Below are positions 3,534 through 63,696 of a stretch of 64,000 nt of DNA, piece by piece. Numbering within the stretch: position 1 is the stretch's first letter; the number at the start of each line of letters is the position of its first letter. Made by a program: the position numbers and the translations under genes. The notes below the pieces were generated by a model that searched no databases, was not told where the DNA came from, and saw only the letters and a list, made by a program, of their open reading frames with translations. The stretch comes from an uncultured Syntrophaceae bacterium (GTDB lineage: Bacteria > Desulfobacterota > Syntrophia > Syntrophales > PHBD01), in contig CAZLFA010000005.1 in assembly GCA_964558665.1 (NCBI GenBank), positions 7,603-71,602 of the forward strand, given 5' to 3'.

Positions 3534-4127
3534 ATGCTGAACGTCGGAATATTACTTTTCAATGATGTGGAAGTTCTTGATTTTGCAGGCCCCTTTGAAG
3601 TGTTCTCGGTTACGTCGGAACTCAACAACTGTGATCTGTTTAAAGTTTTTACAATCACAAAAGACGGGAAACTAATAACAGCGGTAAACGGTTTGAAGGT
3701 TTTGCCCGATTACTCATTCAACGATCATCCTCAAATAGACGTCCTTATTATACCGGGAGGAATCGGCACAAGGAAGGAGATGGAAGATGAAAATGTTCTT
3801 GAATGGATCAAAAACAAATACGCATCTTCGCAAATTACATTTTCGGTATGCTCGGGGGCAAGAATATTGGGAAAAGCAGGACTGCTTGATGAAATTGAGG
3901 CCGTTACCCACCATGAAGTAATACCGCACCTGAAAGAGATCGCACCGAAAGCAATCATCAATGAGAAGGCCAGGTTTATTGACAATGGCAGGATTATGAC
4001 CTGCGGCGGCATATCGGCGGGCATCGATCTTTCATTGTACATTGTTCAAAAACTGTTTGGAGAAGGCATTACAAAGAAAACAATCGGATACATGGAATAT
4101 GGAGATTGGAGAGGAGAGAAGATTTGA
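3534..4127 (+). CDS. DJ-1/PfpI family protein
   Basis: LIIPGG, nucleophile-elbow Cys in FSVCSGARILGKAGLL, GGISAGIDL. Confidence 0.8.
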   Translation: MLNVGILLFNDVEVLDFAGPFEVFSVTSELNNCDLFKVFTITKDGKLITAVNGLKVLPDYSFNDHPQIDVLIIPGGIGTRKEMEDENVLEWIKNKYASSQITFSVCSGARILGKAGLLDEIEAVTHHEVIPHLKEIAPKAIINEKARFIDNGRIMTCGGISAGIDLSLYIVQKLFGEGITKKTIGYMEYGDWRGEKI

Positions 4128-4197
4128 AATATAATTCGTGTTTGAAATCCGCGGCGGCAGACGAGATGGCTTCGCCGATAAGGAATACACTGAGGCA

Positions 4198-4824
4198 ATG
4201 ACAACAAAGCAGCCAACATATCGCCTTCGCAAATTCTCCCGCAGGGGAGATTTGCCGGAAAACTATCGGGGCACCTTCGAATTGCTCGATGATCAGACTC
4301 GACAGGTCATGGCTTCCTGTGACGTATCGGGTCACGCCACTTTCTCTCCGGTTTCGATTATCGACAGCGAACATCAGGCATGGACCATGAAACCGAATCG
4401 TAAGATCATGCCCACACGCTGGATTCTTACCGATCCCGGCCGGTCCGTCGCCATGCAATTCGATCAGAATCTGTCGAGCAAACTGAAAAAGTATAGAACC
4501 ATCCTCACGCTGCTGGACAGCCGGGACAAAGAGTTCTACCGCATTGTTGATCCACGGAAAAGTACTATCAACCGGATATTGGGGGTCGGCCCGGATGATT
4601 GGGCGATCATGGACGGCGACAAACTTGCGGCGAAGGTCACCTTCCTGACAGAAGCAAAGGCACCGCCTTCCGGCCTGTGGCAAAAGATCACGGATTTTCT
4701 TACATCCTCAGACAAAGGTATTGTAAGCATCGGTCTCAACCATATAATGCCGCCGCCGACAGCGCTTGCCATGATGCTGATCCTCAAGGAAGTGACGGCA
4801 TACGAAAGCTGCGACAAGACGTGA
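4198..4824 (+). CDS. hypothetical protein
   Basis: ORF 4138..4824. ATG at 4198 is preceded by tgagg. The composition looks protein-like, whereas the overlapping antisense ORF looks Arg/Cys-rich and non-protein-like. No family recognised. Confidence 0.45.
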   Translation: MTTKQPTYRLRKFSRRGDLPENYRGTFELLDDQTRQVMASCDVSGHATFSPVSIIDSEHQAWTMKPNRKIMPTRWILTDPGRSVAMQFDQNLSSKLKKYRTILTLLDSRDKEFYRIVDPRKSTINRILGVGPDDWAIMDGDKLAAKVTFLTEAKAPPSGLWQKITDFLTSSDKGIVSIGLNHIMPPPTALAMMLILKEVTAYESCDKT

Positions 4825-4892
4825 AGTTTTAATAACAGCAGCATGAATTGTTTTGTTCGGCAGTTTAGAATACAAAGGAGAAAAGCTATATC

Positions 4893-5537
4893 ATGAGCAA
4901 AGAAAAGCGGGAGTTCGATAAAGAGGCCGCCTCGTGGGATGAAAATCCCGGAAGAGTCAAGCTGGCTAACGATATTGCCCGGGCAATATCAAGGCAGATT
5001 ACACTGACGCCCGACATGAGCGTCATGGACTTCGGGTGCGGCACAGGATTGCTGACAATACATTTGCAACCTCTCGTCCGTTCCATTATCGGCGTTGACA
5101 GTTCGCAGGGAATGCTCGACATATTGAAGACAAAAATCGCCAAAATGAATCTGAACAATGTCAAAGCCGAACTTGTCGACCTTGACAGAGGCGATATCCT
5201 GACAGGTAGTTATAATCTTGTTTTGAGCAACATGACCCTTCACCATATAAAGGATATAAAGCATCTTTTCGATCAATTCCATAAAATCACGGCTCTGCCT
5301 GGTTATCTATGTATTGCCGACCTGGATTCCGATGAAGGCCGGTTTCACGATGATAACACAGGGGTATTCCACTTCGGATTTGCCCGTCCCGAGTTGCGCC
5401 GGATTTTCAAAGAAGCGGGATTTGATAATGTTCAGGATTTAACCGCAGCAGAGGTGATGAAACCGAGCAGTGACGGAGAGATGAAGTGTTTCACCGTGTT
5501 TCTCATGACCGGCCGCAAGGGGTCGGATAAAGAATGA
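4893..5537 (+). CDS. class I SAM-dependent methyltransferase
   Basis: Motif I VMDFGCGTGLL. RBS aaaggag upstream. Confidence 0.8.
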   Translation: MSKEKREFDKEAASWDENPGRVKLANDIARAISRQITLTPDMSVMDFGCGTGLLTIHLQPLVRSIIGVDSSQGMLDILKTKIAKMNLNNVKAELVDLDRGDILTGSYNLVLSNMTLHHIKDIKHLFDQFHKITALPGYLCIADLDSDEGRFHDDNTGVFHFGFARPELRRIFKEAGFDNVQDLTAAEVMKPSSDGEMKCFTVFLMTGRKGSDKE

Positions 5538-6010
5538 TCATGAATGTCACTATTATTAAGGCAAACGCAGATGATGCCGTTGAGATTCTTACCTTGCAGA
5601 AACTGGTATATGAAAGTGAAGCAAGGCTTTACAGAGACTGGAACATCCCTCCCCTCACCCAGACTATTTCTGAAATTGAAGCAGAATTTAAAGCCAATGT
5701 ATTTCTGAAGGCTGTATCGGGGGAAAGAATCATTGGTTCAGTAAGAGGTTGGCTTGCCTCCGGCACATGTCGGATAGGAAGGCTCATTGTTCATCCTGAC
5801 TATCAGGGAAATGGCATCGGTACATTGCTCATGGAGGGTATAGAGAGGGCATTCCCGGGTGCAGACAGGTTCGAGTTGTTTACCGGCACAAGGAGCGTCG
5901 CCAATATCCGGCTCTACCGAAGTCTCGGATATCGGGAGTGCCGTGAAGAGGAGCTGTCACCGGAAGTCCGGCTTGTCTTTATAGAGAAACTCCCGGTAAC
6001 CAGCCGATAG
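5534..6010 (+). CDS. GNAT family N-acetyltransferase
   Basis: RLIVHPDYQGNGIGTLLM (acetyl-CoA binding Q/RxxGxG). 4-nt overlap with the upstream methyltransferase gene. Confidence 0.75.
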   Translation: MIMNVTIIKANADDAVEILTLQKLVYESEARLYRDWNIPPLTQTISEIEAEFKANVFLKAVSGERIIGSVRGWLASGTCRIGRLIVHPDYQGNGIGTLLMEGIERAFPGADRFELFTGTRSVANIRLYRSLGYRECREEELSPEVRLVFIEKLPVTSR

Positions 6011-6107
6011 GCAATTAAAACTGATATCGTTTCTCCCGTGCACCACGACAGCATCCATTTTATAATGGTGAAAACAGCGGGGCAACCTCTTTATCTTTTG
6101 CATCCCG

Positions 6108-6884
6108 TCAATCAGGTTCCGCAAAGACTTCCCTAGCTGCCGATATCCCGTTCAATGCAGCGGGAAAGCCCGCATATACCGCCGTATGATACATAATCTC
6201 TATTATCTGTTCCTTCGTGAGACCTACATTGATGGCGGCTTTGATATGAACTTTCAGTTGCGGCCTCATGGTTCCTGCAGCGGTCATGCCGGCAATGGCG
6301 ATTATCTCCTTCCGGCAGGGAATCAGGACTTCCCGGCAAAAAATGGTGCCGTAGGAAAACTCGATCAGGAAATTCACCATGTCCGGGGCAATATCGCCGA
6401 GGCTCTCCATCACCTTCCGGCCCGCCCCCTTACTGGTTTCCTCAAGCATACGGATGCCGCGCTCCCGTTTGTCCGCCTTGCAGTCATCCCATGCGGCCGG
6501 TCTGAAATCCACCTGCCTTTCGTTAAAAACATCCCGCGCCGCAAAGATCGCGTTGAGGCCTGATGGAAAACCTGAATATACAGTCTGCACATAGATCGTA
6601 TCGATGATCTCCTGCGGCGTAATTCCGATATTCAGTGCAGCGCCGATATGCCACTTCAGTTGCGGCTGGGCATTTCCCAGAGCTGTCAGAATGGCGATTG
6701 TTGCCGTCTGCCGCGACACGGCGTCGAGGGCGGGGCGGAAATAAACGTCACCATATGCGAAGCAAACCAGAAACTGTGCCATATCCGGGGCAATATCGGA
6801 CAACCCTTTCAAAACCTGTTCTGCGCCCTCAGGGTTGAGGTTTTCCAATTGCCGGTACCCTCTGTCAAATCTGTCTTGCTCCAT
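6108..6884 (-). CDS. carboxymuconolactone decarboxylase (CMD/AhpD-like) family protein, tandem domains
   Basis: Two homologous halves (...DIAPDMAQFLVCFAYGDVYFRPALD... and ...DIAPDMVNFLIEFSYGTIFCREVL...). Start moved to the ATG at 6884, with aaggaggg 7 nt upstream. Confidence 0.75.
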   Translation of the reverse strand: MEQDRFDRGYRQLENLNPEGAEQVLKGLSDIAPDMAQFLVCFAYGDVYFRPALDAVSRQTATIAILTALGNAQPQLKWHIGAALNIGITPQEIIDTIYVQTVYSGFPSGLNAIFAARDVFNERQVDFRPAAWDDCKADKRERGIRMLEETSKGAGRKVMESLGDIAPDMVNFLIEFSYGTIFCREVLIPCRKEIIAIAGMTAAGTMRPQLKVHIKAAINVGLTKEQIIEIMYHTAVYAGFPAALNGISAAREVFAEPD

Positions 6885-7051: not shown

Positions 7052-7840
7052 ATGGAAACAATGGATTTAGGAATAGACTGGAAAAAGTTCCATGCCATGG
7101 GACTGCACGGCAGCCTGGAGGACTTCTCTTCCGAAACGCTTCACATCCACCCTTTCCACCAGGTCCTGCATATCCGGAACGGCGTTGCCCTTCTTCAGGA
7201 TGCCGGGGGGACGCGTCCGCAATACGGACATATGGCGGCATTCATTCCCGCCTGCGTCCCGCACAGAACGGAAGTTATCGGGGATTCCGTGGCGTACCAG
7301 TCTTTATATTTCAGAGCATCCTTTTTTAGGTGGCGCGGCCGTACCGTACAGACGTTTCAGATGAGCCCTTTGGGGTTTGTCCTGCTGCAACGGATCAATG
7401 AGGAGGAACCGTTGCAGAACATCGAGCGCGGCATCGCCGGAGATTGTGTTGATCTGTTCCTGAAAATACTCCCGACTGATATGCAGAATGAAAGTCCGTC
7501 TCTTTTCCTGCCGGAATCAAAAACAGAGCTCAACAGAAAAGTCTGTCGCTTCCTCGAAAAAAACTATCGCACGCGGATAACGGCCGAAGATATTTCACGA
7601 GCAGCATCTTTCTCCTTCCGGCAGATTTCGCGGATATTCAAGGCCGATACGGGATTGACCGTCTTCGGATACCTGAAGGTCTACAGGATGCTTCAAGCCT
7701 CGATTGATCTCAGCACGACCGGCAACAAGATCATCTCCATAGCCTATGATTGCGGCTACGATTCAATTTCTTCTTTTTTTGTCGACTTCAAAAAACTCTT
7801 TGGTGTTTCACCGGCAGAGTTCCGCAGCGGCCATCGATAA
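7052..7840 (+). CDS. AraC family transcriptional regulator
   Basis: C-terminal AraC HTH (ISIAYDCGYDSISSFFVDFKKLFGVSPAEFR) and cupin-like N-terminal half. Divergent from the CMD gene. Confidence 0.8.
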   Translation: METMDLGIDWKKFHAMGLHGSLEDFSSETLHIHPFHQVLHIRNGVALLQDAGGTRPQYGHMAAFIPACVPHRTEVIGDSVAYQSLYFRASFFRWRGRTVQTFQMSPLGFVLLQRINEEEPLQNIERGIAGDCVDLFLKILPTDMQNESPSLFLPESKTELNRKVCRFLEKNYRTRITAEDISRAASFSFRQISRIFKADTGLTVFGYLKVYRMLQASIDLSTTGNKIISIAYDCGYDSISSFFVDFKKLFGVSPAEFRSGHR

Positions 7841-7916
7841 TCTGCGTACAGGCCGGATGGTTTAAACTTGACATTATATGCATTATATTTTATTTTTATG
7901 CATAAGGAGGCGGGTT

Positions 7917-8120
7917 ATGAGAACAACACTTGATTTACCTAAAGAGTTGATTGATGAGGCCATGAAGGCCACCAATATTAACACAAAGACTCAGGTTATC
8001 ATTACTGCGCTGGAAGATTTAATTAGAAAATCAAAAATAGCCGGACTGAAAAAGTTCAAAGGTAAAATCGACTTGAATATCGATATGAATGTTGTGAGAG
8101 GGCGTCGATGTCGGTATTAG
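7917..8120 (+). CDS. vapB: type II antitoxin, VapB-like (DUF2191-type)
   Basis: MRTTLDLPKELIDEAMKATN... N-terminus typical of this antitoxin class. aaggagg RBS at 7904-7910. Overlaps the PIN gene start. Confidence 0.65.
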   Translation: MRTTLDLPKELIDEAMKATNINTKTQVIITALEDLIRKSKIAGLKKFKGKIDLNIDMNVVRGRRCRY

Positions 8121-8488
8121 TAGATACCTCTGTATGGATAGAATATTTCAGGAACATACATAATTCAGAAAAGCTTGATTTTCTGATTGATGAAAACCTT
8201 GTTGTCACTAACGATCTTATTCTTGCAGAACTGATCCCTTTTTTGAAAGTTCGCAAACAGGCGAGGATTATTGATTTAATGCGCAGCATCAGCAGATTGG
8301 AGTTATCGATTGACTGGAACCAGATTATTGATTTCCAATTCAAATGTTTGAAAAACGGTTTAAATGCCGTTGGAATTCCGGACCTTATTATTGCACAGAA
8401 TGCAAAACAAAATTCCTGTGCAATATATTCACTCGATAATCATTTCCGACTGATGAAAGATATACTTGAGCTGCAACTGACAAAATAA
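8108..8488 (+). CDS. vapC: type II toxin, PIN-domain VapC
   Basis: VLVDTSVWIEYF N-terminal acidic PIN motif. About 126 aa. 13-nt overlap with the antitoxin gene. Confidence 0.75.
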   Translation: MSVLVDTSVWIEYFRNIHNSEKLDFLIDENLVVTNDLILAELIPFLKVRKQARIIDLMRSISRLELSIDWNQIIDFQFKCLKNGLNAVGIPDLIIAQNAKQNSCAIYSLDNHFRLMKDILELQLTK

Positions 8489-8568
8489 AAGGAATATTAC
8501 CAAACCGGCCATTTGCTGAAATTATGTTCCTGAGGGCGGTGATTTTAGTTTTTGAAAGGATTACCCTT

Positions 8569-9534
8569 ATGCTTCCAACTTTAGAGGATATTGAAAAGGC
8601 CGCAAAAATTGTCTACTCAGTAATGCCCCCCACTCCTCAGTACTGCTGGCCGCTCCTAAGCGAGCGCCTGGGTACGGAAATATGGGTCAAACACGAAAAT
8701 CATACCTCCGTCGGGGCGTTCAAGATTCGCGGCGGTCTTGTCTATCTCAACGCGCTTGCCGCAGAAAAAAAGGATTTGAAAGGGGTGATTTCCGCCACGC
8801 GCGGCAATCACGGCCAGTCGGTAGCTATAGCGGCACGTCGTTATGGTATACCGGCGAAGATCGTTGTCCCGTTCGGTAACAGCAGAGAGAAAAACGCAGC
8901 CATGAGGTCACTCGGCGCCGACCTGGTAGAATTCGGCGACGACTTCCAGACGGCGCTTGAACATGCACAAATGCTTGCGCAGGAAAATTCGCTCCACATG
9001 GTCCCGTCATACCACCAACTTTTGATCGCCGGCGTGGCAACCTACTGTCTTGAGCTGCTCAAGGCTGTCCCCGACCTGCAAACCGTTTACGTTCCCATCG
9101 GTCTCGGTTCCGGAATATCCGCCATGATCGCCGCGCGGACGGCTCTCGGATTGCAGACGGAGATCGTCGGTGTGGTTTCGTCCCAAGCGCGGGCTTACGC
9201 AGAGTCCTTCCGGCGCAAGACGCCGGTTGACTCCCCCGTAACCACCCGCATAGCCGACGGCATTGCCTGCCGTTCGCCTAATCCTGAAGCGCTCGATGTT
9301 ATCTTGAATGGTGTTGACCGCGTTGTTGAGGTGTCGGACATGGAAGTTGCGGAGGCGATCAGAACCATTTTCGAGTGCACCCACAACGTCAGCGAGGGCG
9401 CCGGCGCTGCGGGTACAGCGGCAGCGCTGCAGGAGAAATCACGCAACGCCGGGCGCAGGATTGCCGTAGTTATTACCGGCGGCAACATTGACAGGGAACT
9501 ATTTGCCGGTGTGCTGAATATGTCTTTTGCATAA
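8569..9534 (+). CDS. PLP-dependent serine/threonine dehydratase family enzyme
   Basis: HENHTSVGAFKIRG (PLP lysine motif), GNHGQS, GGNID. Start set at MLPTLEDIEKA. Confidence 0.8.
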   Translation: MLPTLEDIEKAAKIVYSVMPPTPQYCWPLLSERLGTEIWVKHENHTSVGAFKIRGGLVYLNALAAEKKDLKGVISATRGNHGQSVAIAARRYGIPAKIVVPFGNSREKNAAMRSLGADLVEFGDDFQTALEHAQMLAQENSLHMVPSYHQLLIAGVATYCLELLKAVPDLQTVYVPIGLGSGISAMIAARTALGLQTEIVGVVSSQARAYAESFRRKTPVDSPVTTRIADGIACRSPNPEALDVILNGVDRVVEVSDMEVAEAIRTIFECTHNVSEGAGAAGTAAALQEKSRNAGRRIAVVITGGNIDRELFAGVLNMSFA

Positions 9535-20051: not shown

Positions 20052-20126
<75 letters not shown>

Positions 20127-55710: not shown

Positions 55711-55797
55711 TGGTGCCGAAGCCGGGACTTGAACCCGGACGAGCGGTGCTCACTACCCCCTCAAGATAGCGTGTCTACCATATTCCACCACTTCGGC
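55711..55797 (-). tRNA. tRNA-Leu (anticodon GAG)
   Basis: Hand fold: acceptor GCCGAAG/CUUCGGC, anticodon arm CUAUC-UUGAGGG-GGUAG, long variable arm, T loop UUCAAGU, encoded CCA. Confidence 0.9.
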
Positions 55798-58150: not shown

Positions 58151-58702
58151 TTATTTCGTGGGATCACCAAAGATGTCTGCTGAAAACACAAATATTTTCG
58201 TTTCTTTGTCTTTCCAGGAATTTGAAGGCAGACCTGCCTTCCGGCATGTTTGCTCCAGAAAAGTTTCCCTGTCCCACTCATACTCTGTAGCAACCTGGGG
58301 CAGAAGAAGCCCCGAAAAAGAGCCCCTTGTTATGTAGAGTCCATGTAAGCCGACAACTATTTCTTCCATGTTTTCAATCTCTTTTAGCGGCGTCAGCACA
58401 GAAATTTCAAAAGAAAGCTGAGAAAGCTCTCCTTCTGTTACAGGAGGAAACCTGGGATCATTGAAGGCGGCTGCTCTGGCCATTTCTTTTACCGTGGATT
58501 CTAAATCCTTGACGGCATGTATATAACCGATGCATCCTCTGAGAAGTCCTTTTTTCTTGATAGTAACAAATGCCCCTCTTTTCTCTCCCAAGGCCGGATC
58601 ATCGTCTTTAAACTCAGGCATGGGTTTGTTTTTCAGTCGGTTTTCTATACTTTTTTTCGCTGCCTCAAGAAGCGCTTTTTTCCCTTTTTCCGTTAGTTCC
58701 AT
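58151..58702 (-). CDS. AmmeMemoRadiSam system protein A (AMMECR1 domain)
   Basis: GAFVTIKKKGLLRGCIGYI and LPQVA blocks. Confidence 0.85.
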   Translation of the reverse strand: MELTEKGKKALLEAAKKSIENRLKNKPMPEFKDDDPALGEKRGAFVTIKKKGLLRGCIGYIHAVKDLESTVKEMARAAAFNDPRFPPVTEGELSQLSFEISVLTPLKEIENMEEIVVGLHGLYITRGSFSGLLLPQVATEYEWDRETFLEQTCRKAGLPSNSWKDKETKIFVFSADIFGDPTK

Positions 58703-58738: not shown

Positions 58739-59566
58739 TCACTTTTTGATGAATGCCGCAGATGCATATCCCACCACACGCGACCTGTCTCCTGTTACAT
58801 CACCGGAATTTGCATATTTCAAAATCTTAGCTTCACTCGCCCCCATCATTTTCGAAGTCATGACAGTAACCGCGGCAGGACCTCCGCCACAGGCTTCACA
58901 TTTACCACTTTTTAAATCTGCGAGCATCCCCCGTACATCCATTTTCCCCAAATTCCCCAAAAATTGAGAATCCTTTTTTACTGCCTGATTATAATCATGA
59001 AAATGAGAAAGATCGGAACTGCCGACAATGAGAATATTGCTATCACCGGCGGACTGGAATATGGCATTTGCCAGTTCTTCACAGGTTTTTGAATCCTGAT
59101 TACCCATAACCAGGGGAACAAACGAGAATTCTCCCAATGCCACCTGAAGGAAGGGAAGTTGAATCTCGAGGGCATGTTCCTGGATGTGAGCAGAAGGAAT
59201 GTCATCAATCATTCGGCTGAAATTCATCAGCCTGCCTGCCATGGCTCTGTTTACCGGCACAACTCCCAGGGGAGTTTCATATCCGCCGCCGAGGTAAACA
59301 GAAACACCGGGAAACGCCATACGATGGGACGGGCTTATAACAAACACCGTATCGTATAGTTTTTTTCTTATTGTGTGGTATGCATATGCGGCAACCTGAC
59401 CTGAATATACATAACCTGCATGAGGGGCGACAAGACCGACAATATGACCCTCTATCTTGTCAACGGCAACATTGCTGAAATAGTCTTCGATATCCTTTTT
59501 CAGGATACTTGAGTCTCCAGGATACCATGAGCCGGCAATTACAGATTTTCTTATGTCATTAATCAT
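58739..59566 (-). CDS. AmmeMemoRadiSam system protein B (Memo1 family)
   Basis: AGSWYPG, VAPHAGYVYSG, SSDLSH blocks. The ATG at 59566 forms an ATGA overlap with the stop of the upstream fusion gene (track start 59581 is also possible). Confidence 0.85.
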   Translation of the reverse strand: MINDIRKSVIAGSWYPGDSSILKKDIEDYFSNVAVDKIEGHIVGLVAPHAGYVYSGQVAAYAYHTIRKKLYDTVFVISPSHRMAFPGVSVYLGGGYETPLGVVPVNRAMAGRLMNFSRMIDDIPSAHIQEHALEIQLPFLQVALGEFSFVPLVMGNQDSKTCEELANAIFQSAGDSNILIVGSSDLSHFHDYNQAVKKDSQFLGNLGKMDVRGMLADLKSGKCEACGGGPAAVTVMTSKMMGASEAKILKYANSGDVTGDRSRVVGYASAAFIKK

Positions 59567-61875
59567 GACTTGAATCTCCATACCATGCCGTCAGGCGTGT
59601 CGGACACTTCAATCCCTATTTCATGAAGTTTCATCCTCATCGAATCTGACTCCTGCCACTTACCCTCACGTCTCATTGCTTCTCTTTCATCAAGAAGCTT
59701 TTTAATCTCCTCGCTAATAGGTTCCTGCTTAAATTCCATAACACCCAATACGGTATCCAATGCTTTCATAGTATTAATTATATGATCTCTATTCTGCTCA
59801 CTCAACAACTTTCTGGAAAGAGGTACATTGACTTTCTTAACAAACTCAAAAAGAGAAGCTAAAGCACCGGAGATGTTCAGATCATCATCCATGGCATCAG
59901 CAAACCCCTGCTTTATATCATAGATAATCTGCTCGGTATCCGGATAGCCCTCGCCCTTCGTATAATGAAGTAATCTCTGAATGAAACCGTCAAGCCTTTT
60001 TACTGTATTTCTTGCCGAGTCAAGCGCGCCAAAGGAAAAATGAAGAGGTTTTCGATAATGTGACCCTAGAAGGAAAAAACGGATTTCTCTTCCGTTGTAT
60101 CCGCGTCTTTCCAAATCTTCAATTGTCAGAATATTATCCAGAGAACGGGACATTTTCTTACCGCCTACCATCAGCAGCTCCGTGTTTATCCAGTAGTTTG
60201 CCATCTGTTTTCCCGTTGCAGCTTTTCCGATAGCCATTACATTTTCACAATGAGGGAAAATAATATCAGAACCACTGGCATGGATGTCGAAATTGTCTGC
60301 AAGGTATTTAAGTGAGATAGCTGCACATTCCAAATGCCAGCTTGGTCTTACATTGCCCCATGCCGTTTTAAAATAGACACCCCTTTTCAATTCCGCCAGA
60401 CTTGATCTTTTTAGCAAAGTAAAATCCACGGGACTGTCTTTTGCGTAATCATCGAGGTCAACAGTCTTTCCGGGTTTCATTTTTTTAAGATTGACATTAG
60501 ATAGCCTGCCGTAATTATCCAGCTTTGAGATATCAAAATATACGGATCTCAGCTTCTCATATGCAAACCCTTTTTCAACGAGCCGCTCAGTAAGCTTGAT
60601 CATGGCATCCACATTTTCACTGGCTTTAGGAAGCGGTTCATCATGCTTGATGTTGAGTTTCTCAATTCCCCCGGTGAAGGTTGCCGTACATTTTTCGGAA
60701 TAATCTCTTATTTCCATTTGCGCGCGCTCTGCCCCGCGTATTGACCTGTCTGCAAGGTCAATTACATTCATGACATGCTTAACCCGATAACCTTTATATT
60801 CCAGATAACGCCTGATCAAATCCGAAACTACAAAGCGCCGGTAACTGCCTATATGAGGCACATCGTGCACTGTAGGGCCGCAAGAGTGCATCAAAACCTC
60901 TGTAGGCCTGATGGATTTAAAGTAATCCTTTTGCTTGGTAAGGGTGTTAAACAAGCGCAATGTTGTCTCTTGTCTGTCAGCAAAAAGTTCCGTACTGAGG
61001 TACCGTTCTCCACTGTCCGGGCATATAACGACAATCAAGCCATCCTGCATTGTTTTGGCCTTTTCTATTGCCACATGCATAGCAGCACCCGAACTCATGC
61101 CGACAAACAGGCCCTCTTCTTTGCTGAGCCTCCTGGCCATTTCGAAGGCATCCTCATCAAGAATATTGATTTTTTCATCAAGTCGATCCCTGTCAAATAT
61201 ACCGGGCATGTACGACTCTTTCATATTTTTCAGCCCTTGAATCTTGTGCTGAAGATAAGGTTCCACACCGACAATTCTTATTTCCGGGTTATATTCCTTG
61301 AGACGCTTCGAAATGCCCATCGCTGTACCGGTTGTGCCAAGAGCTGATACAACCATGGTAACTGCGCCGTTGGTCTGACGCCAGATTTCCTCGCCTGTAC
61401 CATGATAGTGTGCCATGATATTATCTTCATTATTGAACTGATCTGTTCCAAAGTACTTATCCGGATTGTCGCGAAGCAGTTTGTAGGCCATCTCAATGGC
61501 ACCATCAGTTCCAAGACCGGCCGGTGTAAAATGGATTTCCGCGCCCATGGCTTTAAGTATCCTCTTTCGCTCTTCGCTCGCGGCTTCCGACATAGCAAGG
61601 CAAAGGCGGTACCCTTTGGCGGCGGCAACCATAGCAAGACCGATACCTGTATTGCCGCTTGTGGCCTCAAGAATTATCTTCTCTTTGGACAGTTCCCCCC
61701 TTTTTTCAGCTCCCTCAATCATGGCAAGAGCAACCCTGTCCTTTATAGAACCGCCAGGGTTGCAACTTTCCAGCTTTGCGTAGATTGTGACTTTTTTATT
61801 AGGATTTAAACGAACAATCTGAACAAGCGGGGTGTTGCCTATTGTTTCTGTAATATTATTGTGAAGTGAAGACAT
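59563..61875 (-). CDS. fusion protein: CysK/CysM-type cysteine synthase (aa 1 to about 300) plus full-length cysteinyl-tRNA synthetase (aa about 305-770)
   Basis: N-terminal half: TIGNTPLV, NPGGSIKDR (PLP Lys), TSGNTGIG, LGTTGT. C-terminal half: LFNTLTKQK, SCGPTVHDVPHIGS (HIGH-like), WHLECAAI, FPHCENV, KMSRS, and a helical anticodon-binding end DGMVWRFK. One uninterrupted 770-codon ORF. Confidence 0.85.
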   Translation of the reverse strand: MSSLHNNITETIGNTPLVQIVRLNPNKKVTIYAKLESCNPGGSIKDRVALAMIEGAEKRGELSKEKIILEATSGNTGIGLAMVAAAKGYRLCLAMSEAASEERKRILKAMGAEIHFTPAGLGTDGAIEMAYKLLRDNPDKYFGTDQFNNEDNIMAHYHGTGEEIWRQTNGAVTMVVSALGTTGTAMGISKRLKEYNPEIRIVGVEPYLQHKIQGLKNMKESYMPGIFDRDRLDEKINILDEDAFEMARRLSKEEGLFVGMSSGAAMHVAIEKAKTMQDGLIVVICPDSGERYLSTELFADRQETTLRLFNTLTKQKDYFKSIRPTEVLMHSCGPTVHDVPHIGSYRRFVVSDLIRRYLEYKGYRVKHVMNVIDLADRSIRGAERAQMEIRDYSEKCTATFTGGIEKLNIKHDEPLPKASENVDAMIKLTERLVEKGFAYEKLRSVYFDISKLDNYGRLSNVNLKKMKPGKTVDLDDYAKDSPVDFTLLKRSSLAELKRGVYFKTAWGNVRPSWHLECAAISLKYLADNFDIHASGSDIIFPHCENVMAIGKAATGKQMANYWINTELLMVGGKKMSRSLDNILTIEDLERRGYNGREIRFFLLGSHYRKPLHFSFGALDSARNTVKRLDGFIQRLLHYTKGEGYPDTEQIIYDIKQGFADAMDDDLNISGALASLFEFVKKVNVPLSRKLLSEQNRDHIINTMKALDTVLGVMEFKQEPISEEIKKLLDEREAMRREGKWQESDSMRMKLHEIGIEVSDTPDGMVWRFKS

Positions 61876-61886
61876 TATGCTGATTA

Positions 61887-62300
61887 TTAACTATTGAGTT
61901 TTGGGTAAGGAATTTTCATGAATTTTATTCCCTCTTCGGAGAGCATTGATTCTTCTTCTTTTGTGGTTGTTCCTTTGATATTTCTTGCCTCTTCTTCTCC
62001 CTTGTGGATACTGACTGCCACCTCAGCAAAACGGTCCCCTACATCATCGAAATTCCGATTAATAAAATCATAAAGGGATTGAAGGGTCTTAGCTGCAGAT
62101 AACTCTTTTTCATTTACCCGTACAGATTGATTATTCTTGCCGACCACTTTAAGTGAGGGCATGATGACATCTACACCGGCATCACCACATACAGGACAAG
62201 AAATAAGATTTTGAACCTTCTGTTTTTCAAATGAGTCAATATCCTTAAACCAACCTTCGTATTTATGGTTGTTCTTGCATTTAAGATCGTAAATTATCAC
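61887..62300 (-). CDS. DUF1178-like zinc-ribbon protein
   Basis: IYDLKCKNNHKYEGWF...SCPVCGD pattern. GTG at 62300 lies 7 nt after aggag. Confidence 0.6.
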   Translation of the reverse strand: MIIYDLKCKNNHKYEGWFKDIDSFEKQKVQNLISCPVCGDAGVDVIMPSLKVVGKNNQSVRVNEKELSAAKTLQSLYDFINRNFDDVGDRFAEVAVSIHKGEEEARNIKGTTTKEEESMLSEEGIKFMKIPYPKLNS

Positions 62301-62376
62301 TACTTTACTCCTCTGCGCCAGGTGCAAAAAAAGTTATGGACATTTAATTATAAATTATATATCTTGCGCGCCAAGT

Positions 62377-62453
62377 CGGGATGTGGCCCAGCCTGGTAGG
62401 GCACTGCGTTCGGGACGCAGGAGTCGCGCGTTCAAATCGCGCCATCCCGACCA
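62377..62453 (+). tRNA. tRNA-Pro (anticodon CGG)
   Basis: Hand fold: acceptor CGGGAUG/CAUCCCG, anticodon arm CUGCG-UUCGGGA-CGCAG, T loop UUCAAAU, encoded CCA. Confidence 0.9.
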
Positions 62454-62487
62454 TTTATTGATAAACTTCTTAAACACTAAACCATCA

Positions 62488-63696
62488 TTATCCGACAACG
62501 GATGCCATTTTGAATATCGGCAGGTACATCGCTATAATCATCCCGCCGACAACGCCACCCAGAAAAACCATCATAAAAGGTTCCAGCAGAGCCGTCATAG
62601 CATCAACAGCCGTATCAACCTCATCGTCATAAAAATCTGCAATCTTGGCAAGCATTGCATCAAGGGCACCCGTAGCTTCTCCGACGGCAATCATCTGTAC
62701 AACCATACTGGGAAATATGCCTGTTTCTGTAAGAGGCTCGGCAATCGTCTTCCCTTCACTGATGCTTTGCCTGACCTTTATTAATGCATTTTCAATTATC
62801 ACGTTTCCGGCGGTTTTACTAACGATGGTTAAGCCTTCAAGAATAGGTACCCCACTCGACATCATCGTGGCCATGGTTCTTGTAAATTTTGCCACAGCTA
62901 CCTTTTTTAAAAGAGGACCAAAAACCGGTGATTTTAGAACCAGATTATCGATCATATACGTACCTTTTTCGGTTTTCTTGAAAGCCTTGAAGGCACTGAA
63001 AAGACCTATGACTATCCCAAGCATTATCCACCAGTAGCTCTGCATAAACGCGCTCGCATTAACGAGAAACTGCGTAGGCCCGGGCAACTCCCCCCCCATT
63101 CCTTCGAACATTTTTTGGAACACGGGAATAACCTTCAGCAACAGCAATGCAACAACACCTATTGAAATGACGAGAACCGAAGCCGGATATGTCATGGCCC
63201 CTTTGACCTTGCTTTTCAATTTGGCTGCTTTTTCCATGTAAGCAGATAAACGGTTTAATATAACATCCAATATACCGCCACTTTCGCCGGCGGCAACAAG
63301 GTTCACAAAGAGCTGATCAAAGATATCCGGATATTTCTTCAAGGCATCGCTGAGCGTTGAGCCACCTTCAATATCATCTTTAATAGTCTGAATAATCTTT
63401 TTAAACGTCTTATTATCCTGCTGATCGCCTAAAATTTCCAGACACTGAATAAGAGGCAGCCCCGCATTAATCATAGTCGCAAATATTCTACAAAAAACGA
63501 CAACATCCTTTTCCTTGACCTTCTCTTTCAGAAAAGGGAAGTATTCCATAAGATCTTTGGGTTTTTCCTTAACCGTGATGGATTTGAATCCCTGCTTACG
63601 AAGTATGTTTCGAACTGCAGCCTGATCAACGGCCTCAAGTTCTCCTTTTTTTTCCTGACCTTTTCTTGTGGTTGCTTCCCATAGAAATACCGGCAT
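62488..63696 (-). CDS. pilC: type IV pilus assembly platform protein PilC (GspF family)
   Basis: Two GspF repeats, three TM regions, 402 aa. Confidence 0.9.
   Translation of the reverse strand: MPVFLWEATTRKGQEKKGELEAVDQAAVRNILRKQGFKSITVKEKPKDLMEYFPFLKEKVKEKDVVVFCRIFATMINAGLPLIQCLEILGDQQDNKTFKKIIQTIKDDIEGGSTLSDALKKYPDIFDQLFVNLVAAGESGGILDVILNRLSAYMEKAAKLKSKVKGAMTYPASVLVISIGVVALLLLKVIPVFQKMFEGMGGELPGPTQFLVNASAFMQSYWWIMLGIVIGLFSAFKAFKKTEKGTYMIDNLVLKSPVFGPLLKKVAVAKFTRTMATMMSSGVPILEGLTIVSKTAGNVIIENALIKVRQSISEGKTIAEPLTETGIFPSMVVQMIAVGEATGALDAMLAKIADFYDDEVDTAVDAMTALLEPFMMVFLGGVVGGMIIAMYLPIFKMASVVG

Follow-up and report, generated by a model that had tools for sequence, protein, structure and literature searches.

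In most organisms, the formation of cysteine and the charging of tRNA-Cys are separate processes (PMC5424206), and the only derivatives of cysteinyl-tRNA synthetase (CysRS) given in a 2022 review are MshC and CysRS* (PMC9437257). The stretch of DNA studied here, 64,000 nucleotides from an uncultured Syntrophaceae bacterium (contig CAZLFA010000005.1; the whole stretch is termed the window in the following), carries a single open reading frame (ORF) in which a CysM-type cysteine synthase is fused to a CysRS module. No description of a CysM-CysRS fusion was found in the searchable literature, and to our knowledge no characterised enzyme combines the last enzyme of an amino-acid biosynthesis with the cognate aminoacyl-tRNA synthetase (aaRS) in a covalent fusion. 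Such fusion proteins have been public since the genome of S. aciditrophicus was deposited, under bland names.

With a probability of about 60%, the fusion would be a bifunctional housekeeping enzyme of a Syntrophales-type bacterium, which forms cysteine and, by means of a synthetase with a remodelled zinc site, charges tRNA-Cys. This reading is preferred because both modules are full length and hold their catalytic residues, because 12 synthetase residues are kept in 116 of 119 clusters despite the divergence of the CysRS half, because the residues of the anticodon domain are kept and because the gene is positionally orthologous to the ancestral cysS locus. It is also favoured by split cysM/cysS pairs lying 2 nt apart and by an apparently independent fusion in Nanoarchaeota.

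In the proposed mechanism, the CysM-type module, which depends on pyridoxal phosphate (PLP), would form L-cysteine by β-replacement from O-acetylserine or O-phosphoserine and sulfide and, by analogy with CysM and CysK, would probably dimerise the protein. The C-terminal module, which we infer to be the organism's resident CysRS, would grip tRNA-Cys via conserved residues of its anticodon domain and bind cysteine at the remodelled zinc site, where Cys332, Cys517 and His542 are kept, the equivalent of E. coli Glu238 is lost and Cys543 is gained. It would then produce Cys-AMP and finally Cys-tRNA-Cys. The fusion would have originated from a pair of cysM and cysS genes situated in the ancestral cysS locus and would couple cysteine supply to tRNA-Cys charging by equal expression and proximity, possibly with tRNA-dependent control of CysM. 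Channeling of cysteine from the synthase to the synthetase is put forward as a hypothesis.

Architecture of the fused gene

The ORF lies at 59563..61875 on the (-) strand, as do all features mentioned below unless stated otherwise, and comprises 770 codons without an internal stop (stop codon 59563-59565). Pfam placed PALP at residues 8-287 (2.7e-70, 237.5 bits), the catalytic CysRS domain tRNA-synt_1e at residues 319-622 (4.9e-84) and, at the C-terminal end, DALR_2 (PF09190) at 658-713 followed by CysS_C (PF23493) at 720-767. Two NCBIfam models scored above their cutoffs, namely, cysKM (TIGR01136) with 368.8 bits (cutoff 344.15) on residues 8-298 and cysS (TIGR00435) with 385.1 bits (cutoff 340) on residues 306-767. 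ORF translation, Pfam and NCBIfam thus bear out the uninterrupted CysM/CysRS ORF that a preliminary description of this DNA had reported. The motifs quoted there were all located (NPGGSIKDR with K45, TSGNTGIG, LGTTGT, LFNTLTKQK, SCGPT, HIGS, WHLEC and KMSRS); FPHCENV is present as well, but its span is 60238-60258 and the quoted 60238-60255 is 3 nt short.

The CysM-type O-acetylserine/O-phosphoserine sulfhydrylase module, a PLP enzyme of fold-type II, covers residues 1-300 (60976..61875) according to PALP, TIGR01136 and the structure matches. The CysRS module covers residues 305-770 (59566..60963), as delimited by TIGR00435 and the structures 8qhp and 1li5, and consists of a Rossmann catalytic fold, a connective-peptide (CP) insertion, a DALR helical domain and an anticodon-binding domain. 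Between the domain boundaries lies a linker of about 8 residues, ADRQETTL (residues 299-306, 60958..60981), in agreement with the junction formerly placed at 60960-60975. The G+C content of the ORF is 44.1% and that of the entire window 46.0%.

An AlphaFold2 (AF2) model of the fusion, based on a 105-sequence alignment, reached a mean predicted local distance difference test (pLDDT) value of 88 and a predicted template modelling (pTM) score of 0.68. In the linker, pLDDT is about 68-77. The sole segment with a value below 50 comprises residues 467-481 (nt about 60433-60477). This loop, KPGKTVDLDDYAKDS, is among the best-conserved segments of the family, in clades with a live and with a dead synthetase site alike. 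Its low pLDDT together with its high conservation suggests a binding loop that becomes ordered on a partner, either tRNA or another subunit.

The cysteine synthase module

The solved structures nearest to the N-terminal half are cysteine synthases, among them CysM 2jc3 and 2bhs. The lysine forming the PLP Schiff base, K45 in NPGGSIKDR (61741..61743), is 100% conserved in live and dead clades. The hallmarks of the enzyme class are in place, with the Asn loop TSGNTG, the glycine-rich phosphate loop GTxGT and a serine directed to PLP N1 (S261). No variation was observed in 105 family members at K45, T72-G77, Q146, G180/T181/G183/T184, K216 and S261. The PLP lysine, Asn loop, Q146, glycine loop, K216 and S261 are invariant irrespective of the state of the synthetase.

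The specificity loop HKIQGLKNMKESY (residues 210-222, 61210..61248) aligns to 2bhs, 2jc3 and 3dwi without gaps, and its motif occurs in all family members. There are likewise no gaps across this loop relative to CysM of E. coli and Salmonella, whereas CysK-type enzymes insert 7 residues there. The invariant K216 aligns with R210 of E. coli CysM and with residue 220 of M. tuberculosis CysM. The latter is an O-phosphoserine sulfhydrylase, and the arginines R210/R220 are determinants for larger or phosphorylated substrates. On the cysM equivalog model (TIGR01138), the fusion scored 365.3, which is under the cutoff of 394.2, with the short loop and the basic K216 being present. Candidate substrates are O-acetylserine or O-phosphoserine as the serine ester and sulfide, thiosulfate or a thiocarboxylate as the sulfur donor.

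The CysRS module and its zinc site

The C-terminal half is closest to the solved CysRS structures 8qhp (7.4e-96) and 1li5 (9.2e-80), in both cases over the full length. The zinc ligands of E. coli CysRS are C28, C209, H234 and E238. In the alignment to 1li5, Cys332 of the fusion (60880..60882) corresponds to the ligand C28 and is 100% conserved in the clade, and WHLEC (60325..60339) corresponds to W205-C209, providing the substrate-packing Trp and the ligand C209. The segment FPHHENE of E. coli, with H234-H235-E236-N237-E238, reads FPHCENV in the fusion (60238..60258), where H542 matches the ligand H234, C543 replaces H235 and V546 replaces the ligand E238. The alignment confirms this difference, which had been noticed before and taken as a hint at an altered zinc shell. 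A background of 93 ordinary CysRS representatives points the same way, as E238 was found in 85/85 and H235 in 84/85 of them. Both exchanges, E238V and H235C, are confined to the Syntrophales clade, in which they have reached 97-100% fixation. Of the four ligands of E. coli CysRS, only the two cysteines were confirmed as zinc-bound by Akaike et al. in 2017 (PMC5660078).

The HIGH signature appears as HIGS (60844..60855) and retains its first His and its Gly. Its fourth position is naturally variable and in ordinary CysRS mostly Asn, HIGN being the commonest form. The Ser was therefore rejected as an anomaly, contrary to the earlier view of HIGS as a departure from HIGH. Changes at K73 and K76 were rejected likewise, since both positions vary among the 93 ordinary enzymes. 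The KMSKS loop reads KMSRS (60142..60156) with Arg for K269, an exchange common to most motif-intact CysRS-like modules linked to CysM (one protein, P0144, has KMARS). K269R need not abolish function, since cell-free translation can be sustained by the K269A variant of E. coli CysRS, in contrast to mutants in C28 or C209 (PMC5660078); both of these cysteines are kept in the fusion.

The C-terminal anticodon-binding domain comprises residues 720-770 (59566..59718; PF23493 CysS_C). R731, R735, W740, D744, R747 and D759 of the fusion are equivalent to E. coli R423, R427, W432, D436, R439 and D451. In the E. coli CysRS-tRNA complex (1u0b), R423, R427, D436, R439 and D451, and also W432, are anticodon contacts. 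The DALR domain is present, and the equivalents of R427, W432, D436, R439 and D451 are conserved.

The module had been described as a complete CysRS. It is full length, but domain matches cannot show completeness: the cysS equivalog cutoff of 340 is also passed by members of the family without KMSKS or C28, with 355 and 342 bits. The cysS model score is therefore uninformative about activity, and TIGR00435 was dropped as functional evidence.

The exchanges in the synthetase might also be viewed in light of another, improbable function in which the modules would jointly carry out non-canonical sulfur chemistry or tRNA-dependent cysteine synthesis. In one variant, thiosulfate or polysulfide would be used in a reaction of the CysM type to make cysteine persulfide or S-sulfocysteine, which would then be loaded; in another, the PLP module would act on a tRNA-bound substrate as a fold-type II analogue of SepCysS. 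For ordinary CysRS, a persulfide synthase activity is reported that depends on PLP and requires both K73 and K269 (PMC5660078), and in the fusion both are Arg and a dedicated PLP module is attached. The remodelled zinc site, the basic residue that is invariably present where E. coli CysM has R210 and M. tuberculosis CysM its residue 220, and the concentration of the family in sulfur-cycling Thermodesulfobacteriota point in the same direction. This support is circumstantial, and the taxonomic bias may merely reflect descent. Of the four zinc ligands, three remain, and so does the Cys-binding Trp, as ordinary cysteine recognition predicts; the archaeal fusion has a fully canonical CysRS, and no SepRS, SepCysS or sulfur-carrier gene adjoins the fusion.

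Authenticity and distribution of the family

A search of 5.8 billion proteins retrieved more than 120 full-length homologues of about 769 aa with both domains and 68-78% identity. They stem from independent NCBI, JGI, ENA and Logan assemblies and include S. aciditrophicus SB and S. gentianae. In the closed 3.18-Mb chromosome of S. aciditrophicus SB (CP000252), the gene encodes the fused protein and is flanked by the same genes as the copy in the window. An assembly or frameshift artefact that joins two genes is thereby effectively refuted. Split cysM/cysS pairs 2 nt apart do exist elsewhere and one protein looks frameshifted, but more than 120 independent full-length fusions have an identical junction, the length of the linker region is conserved and further closed isolate genomes (T. 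marina, M. hydrothermalis and Desulfonema ishimotonii) carry the fusion as well. The protein that looks frameshifted, P0131 (761 aa), matches the query in residues 5-383 only and then continues with unrelated sequence in which Arg, Gly and Ala abound; a frameshift in the assembly of a fusion gene is the probable cause.

Deeper family members were sought by an exhaustive search of 50%-identity representatives, which recovered several deep fusion lineages at 41-57% identity with Pfam scores for CysRS ranging from 390 bits down to nothing. An additional GTDB scan with the single protein relied on query-specific peptides, so that fusions are under-sampled and second copies invisible in it. The family members found are of several kinds. 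In two metagenomes, a 296-aa cysM is followed after 2 nt by a 484-aa cysS of the same subfamily (L083 at 7108-9455 and L084 at 3842-6189; JGI 3300037047 and 3300037045), with the sequence TGA, 2 nt, ATG at the boundary. Loss of one stop codon in such a pair could be a route to the fusion. Fusions with intact motifs occur in Syntrophales, in metagenome-assembled genomes (MAGs) of Ca. Desulfofervidaceae (L004, L005 and L046) and in a few unnamed lineages. Partly altered motifs are found in the cultured Thermosulfurimonas dismutans and T. marina, both with KMSVS. The fusions of Desulforegula conservatrix, Desulfonema ishimotonii and a large number of Desulfobacterales MAGs have lost HIGH, the KMSKS loop and/or a zinc cysteine. 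A clade with a fully dead synthetase comprises at least 120 clusters in cultured Desulfovibrionales, namely, D. ferrophilus, Desulfocurvus, Desulfobaculum, Maridesulfovibrio, Salidesulfovibrio and Desulfoplanes. Finally, a fusion was found in a Nanoarchaeota MAG. In its CysRS half, which is canonical throughout, it groups with ordinary CysRS, and this fusion therefore appears to have arisen independently.

The bacterial CysM-linked CysRS modules, split or fused, formed a group apart from ordinary CysRS (100% bootstrap). Since bootstrap values were low at the deep nodes, the CysRS trees were used for this split and for shallow clades only. A neighbour-joining tree of the CysM half was unresolved and distorted by fragments, and no topology was drawn from it. 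By sequence, the family forms a large CysM-linked CysRS lineage that is concentrated in sulfur-cycling Thermodesulfobacteriota. In line with the preliminary idea, selection for physically linking the synthesis of cysteine to tRNA-Cys gains support from the 2-nt split pairs, the fusions in several orders and the apparently independent archaeal fusion, and the fusion itself, queried there as a possible artefact, proved genuine in the homologues and the closed chromosome.

A candidate fusion from Bacillota (L037) was rejected as an ordinary cysK beside a PLP gene of Cys/Met metabolism. Other fusions within the cysteine pathway were also encountered: tandem PALP-PALP, PALP-PALP-serine acetyltransferase (SAT; about 960-995 aa) and SAT-PALP proteins (P0143, P0163, P0211, P0146, P0149, P0166 and P0242).

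Conservation and decay of the synthetase site

The window's Syntrophales clade, one of the best preserved in the family, was sampled with 119 clusters at 90% identity. All 12 active-site residues of the synthetase are retained in 116 of them, and 32% of the positions in the CysRS half are conserved at ≥97%. The CysM half is the better conserved one throughout: identity to the window protein amounts to 75-82% for the CysM half and 63-75% for the CysRS half in Syntrophales, about 69% and 47-50% in Desulfofervidaceae, and 60-63% and 29-34% in the dead clade. In sister lineages, the catalytic residues decay fast and independently, and within other intact lineages even near relatives differ, e.g. 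with KMSRS versus KMSYS or KMSYA and with W205L. In view of this quick decay, the retention in Syntrophales indicates selection for catalysis.

The dead clade lacks C28, H37, H206, C209 and the KMSKS loop. It retains the CP-domain segment (window residues 436-513) and, at 97-100%, the equivalents of E. coli R423, R427, D436, R439 and D451. What the whole family appears to have in common is a CysM with an intact site and a module that seems to have remained capable of reading tRNA-Cys, and aminoacylation chemistry would be dispensable in many of its lineages. Since most sister lineages lose the synthetase site but keep CysM and the anticodon residues, the benefit would not lie in charging alone, which suggests that selection preserves the coupling to tRNA-Cys.

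These relatives lend weight to a rather unlikely alternative for the window protein, namely, that its CysRS-like half is a non-charging, tRNA-Cys-binding module with a regulatory or scaffolding role that ties CysM to the tRNA-Cys pool, while a canonical cysS elsewhere in the genome charges. HisZ with HisG or the HisRS-like domain of GCN2 would be precedents by function, and HisZ is an established inactive aaRS paralogue that controls the biosynthesis of its cognate amino acid (PMC9437257). C28, C209, HIGH and the KMSKS loop are missing from 120 Desulfovibrionales and many Desulfobacterales clusters, which keep the five anticodon residues at the same 97-100% and the CysM site intact. Derived states common to the window's clade and the dead clades are K73R, S204 and a hydrophobic side chain at position 238, and hardly any ordinary CysRS has E238V or K269R. 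Against a non-charging role speak the remaining catalytic residues, which are fixed in 116/119 clade members and lost by the non-charging relatives, and the location of the gene in the ancestral cysS slot. A second cysS was not seen in the window or in Syntrophales loci, in which a small fraction of each genome is visible.

The bifunctional housekeeping enzyme has several observations to contend with. Of the zinc ligands, C28, C209 and H234 are kept, but E238 is Val; in the KMSKS loop, K269 is Arg where 82/83 ordinary CysRS have Lys. A hydrophobic residue at 238 also occurs in clearly decayed relatives (HYENV, HFENV, HHENV and HLENL), and E238V could for this reason be a first step of decay. 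The 385-bit cysS score of the fusion does not exceed that of relatives lacking essential motifs. Widespread decay implies another CysRS in many host genomes. In the AF2 model, each module is predicted confidently, and the relative placement of the two is of moderate confidence (pTM 0.68). All of these points weigh against this reading.

More tentatively, and with odds well short of even, the CysM-linked CysRS lineage might represent an unrecognised class of aaRS-derived modules that read tRNA-Cys and couple it to cysteine synthesis, i.e. a demand sensor at the protein level. By analogy, this sensor could perhaps be the cysteine counterpart of HisZ or of the HisRS-like domain of GCN2. Under the same speculative proposal, the Syntrophales form might both charge tRNA-Cys and, depending on tRNA, control or hand off the cysteine made by CysM, and the forms in Desulfovibrionales and Desulfobacterales might be pure sensors.

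Genomic position

In three Syntrophales genomes, the gene order is gmk-rpoZ-pyrF-rlmB-pilC-DUF1178-fusion-Memo-AMMECR1-(rpmG-secE)-nusG-rplKAJL-rpoB, of which the window covers the part from pilC to AMMECR1. In T. marina, the fusion comes after ispF and ispD. A Bacillaceae locus with an ordinary cysS reads ispD-ispF-gltX-cysE-cysS-mrnC-rlmB...nusG-rplK-rplA. As the orders in Syntrophales and T. marina match that of Bacillaceae, the fusion sits in the ancestral cysS slot, in which a cysteine-biosynthesis gene already precedes cysS. This slot favours descent from the resident housekeeping cysS, and decay would follow in lineages that gain another CysRS. The dead gene of Maridesulfovibrio, by contrast, stands alone amid signalling genes.

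A DUF1178 zinc-ribbon gene (61887..62327) lies 11 nt upstream of the fusion, is a conserved neighbour in Syntrophales only and is probably the first gene of the operon. The 11-nt spacer between it and the ATG of the fusion, TAATCAGCATA, contains no Shine-Dalgarno-like run. Upstream of DUF1178, a sigma-70-like promoter candidate TTGGCG-16-TATAAT (62347..62374) was found as a consensus match only. Downstream, a Memo-family gene (58739..59581) and an AMMECR1-family gene in the same direction (58151..58702) follow, as identified from the ORF list and neighbour comparison. The ATG of the Memo gene overlaps the 3' end of the fusion by 19 nt, and an operon with co-transcription of Memo and the fusion is therefore likely; no terminator-like site was found between the stop codon of the fusion and the Memo gene. 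In Syntrophales (L001 and L088), but not in other clades, the fusion is consistently accompanied by the Memo/AMMECR1 pair. The radical-SAM partner of the AmmeMemoRadiSam trio is not adjacent to the pair; the genes gap and tpiA come next.

Neither a riboswitch nor a T-box was detected at the fusion, and a SNORD65 match was rejected as chance. No second cysK or cysS was found in the 64-kb window or in 90 loci, which cover a tiny share of any genome. The window holds no tRNA-Cys gene. Among its tRNA genes are tRNA-Pro(CGG) at 62377-62453 (+), which runs opposite to the flanking DUF1178 and pilC genes, tRNA-Gly(CCC) at 20052-20126 (+) and tRNA-Leu(GAG) at 55711-55797 (-). An ORF at 62383..62784 (+) overlaps tRNA-Pro(CGG) and is probably spurious.

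Annotation and significance

The KMSKS loop is absent from P0458 (Desulfonema ishimotonii), P0452 (Desulforegula conservatrix), P0531 and L090, some of which also lack the first zinc cysteine. NCBI calls such KMSKS-less proteins 'cysteine--tRNA ligase' and equally related Desulfovibrionales proteins 'cysteine synthase'. Systematic misannotation of motif-less members is thus likely, and it may mislead pathway reconstructions and counts of cysS as a marker gene in Thermodesulfobacteriota.

The family provides a natural series of split genes and of active-looking, partly decayed and fully dead fusions. This series makes it possible to test the hand-over of cysteine, a toxic and oxidation-prone amino acid, from synthase to synthetase, the use of a pseudo-synthetase as tRNA sensor for a bacterial metabolic enzyme and the extent to which the zinc site of a CysRS can be remodelled.

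Comparison with known systems

The CysRS half is collinear with E. coli CysRS (1li5/1u0b) across residues 2-461 and has C28, H37, W205, H206, E208, C209, H234, the KMS-S loop, the DALR domain and the anticodon-binding residues in common with it. It differs in standing behind a CysM module and in the exchanges of E238 to Val, H235 to Cys and K269 to Arg. Unlike ordinary CysRS, it contains a CP-domain segment of its subfamily (DFTLLKR...ELKRG...KT.WGN) with a 4-residue insertion and belongs to a clade of its own (100% bootstrap). The CysM half resembles CysM (2bhs/2jc3) and M. tuberculosis CysM (3dki/3dwi) in the short loop, the PLP-site residues and the basic residue at R210/R220. Unlike in these enzymes, this residue is Lys instead of Arg, the cysM score is 365 against a cutoff of 394 and a CysRS of 470 residues is attached to the C-terminus.

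MshC and CysRS* are, like the fusion, derived from CysRS and altered in their roles, but neither is joined to a PLP enzyme. MshC, which is not known to have an anticodon-binding domain, is also remote by its model TIGR03447 (184.7 bits for the fusion versus a cutoff of 485.1); the fusion has this domain. CysRS*, present in Desulfobacterales too, is devoid of it (PMC9437257).

The HisZ-HisG system is similar to the fusion in that an aaRS-derived module is attached to a biosynthetic enzyme of the cognate amino acid (PMC9437257). In its relatives from Desulfovibrionales and Desulfobacterales, this module resembles HisZ in being catalytically dead, while the active site is not lost in the window protein or its clade, where the association takes the form of a fusion. 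HisZ-HisG is a hetero-oligomer with a class II module at the first step of its pathway; the fusion is covalent, of class I and concerns the last step. Unlike HisZ, the family keeps anticodon-binding residues, which suggests tRNA rather than an amino acid as ligand.

CysM acts on free serine esters, and SepCysS is a fold-type I enzyme. The parallel to SepRS/SepCysS that had been drawn for this locus is thus conceptual only, the PLP module being a fold-type II CysM unrelated to SepCysS. SepRS-SepCysS(-SepCysE) likewise couples cysteine formation to tRNA-Cys (PMC5424206), but the fusion uses a class I CysRS and not the class II SepRS, and there is no homology. The gltX-cysE-cysS-mrnC-rlmB locus of Firmicutes has a cysteine-biosynthesis gene directly upstream of cysS in the same conserved neighbourhood; its partner is a serine acetyltransferase encoded by a separate gene, whereas the partner in the window is a sulfhydrylase and is fused.

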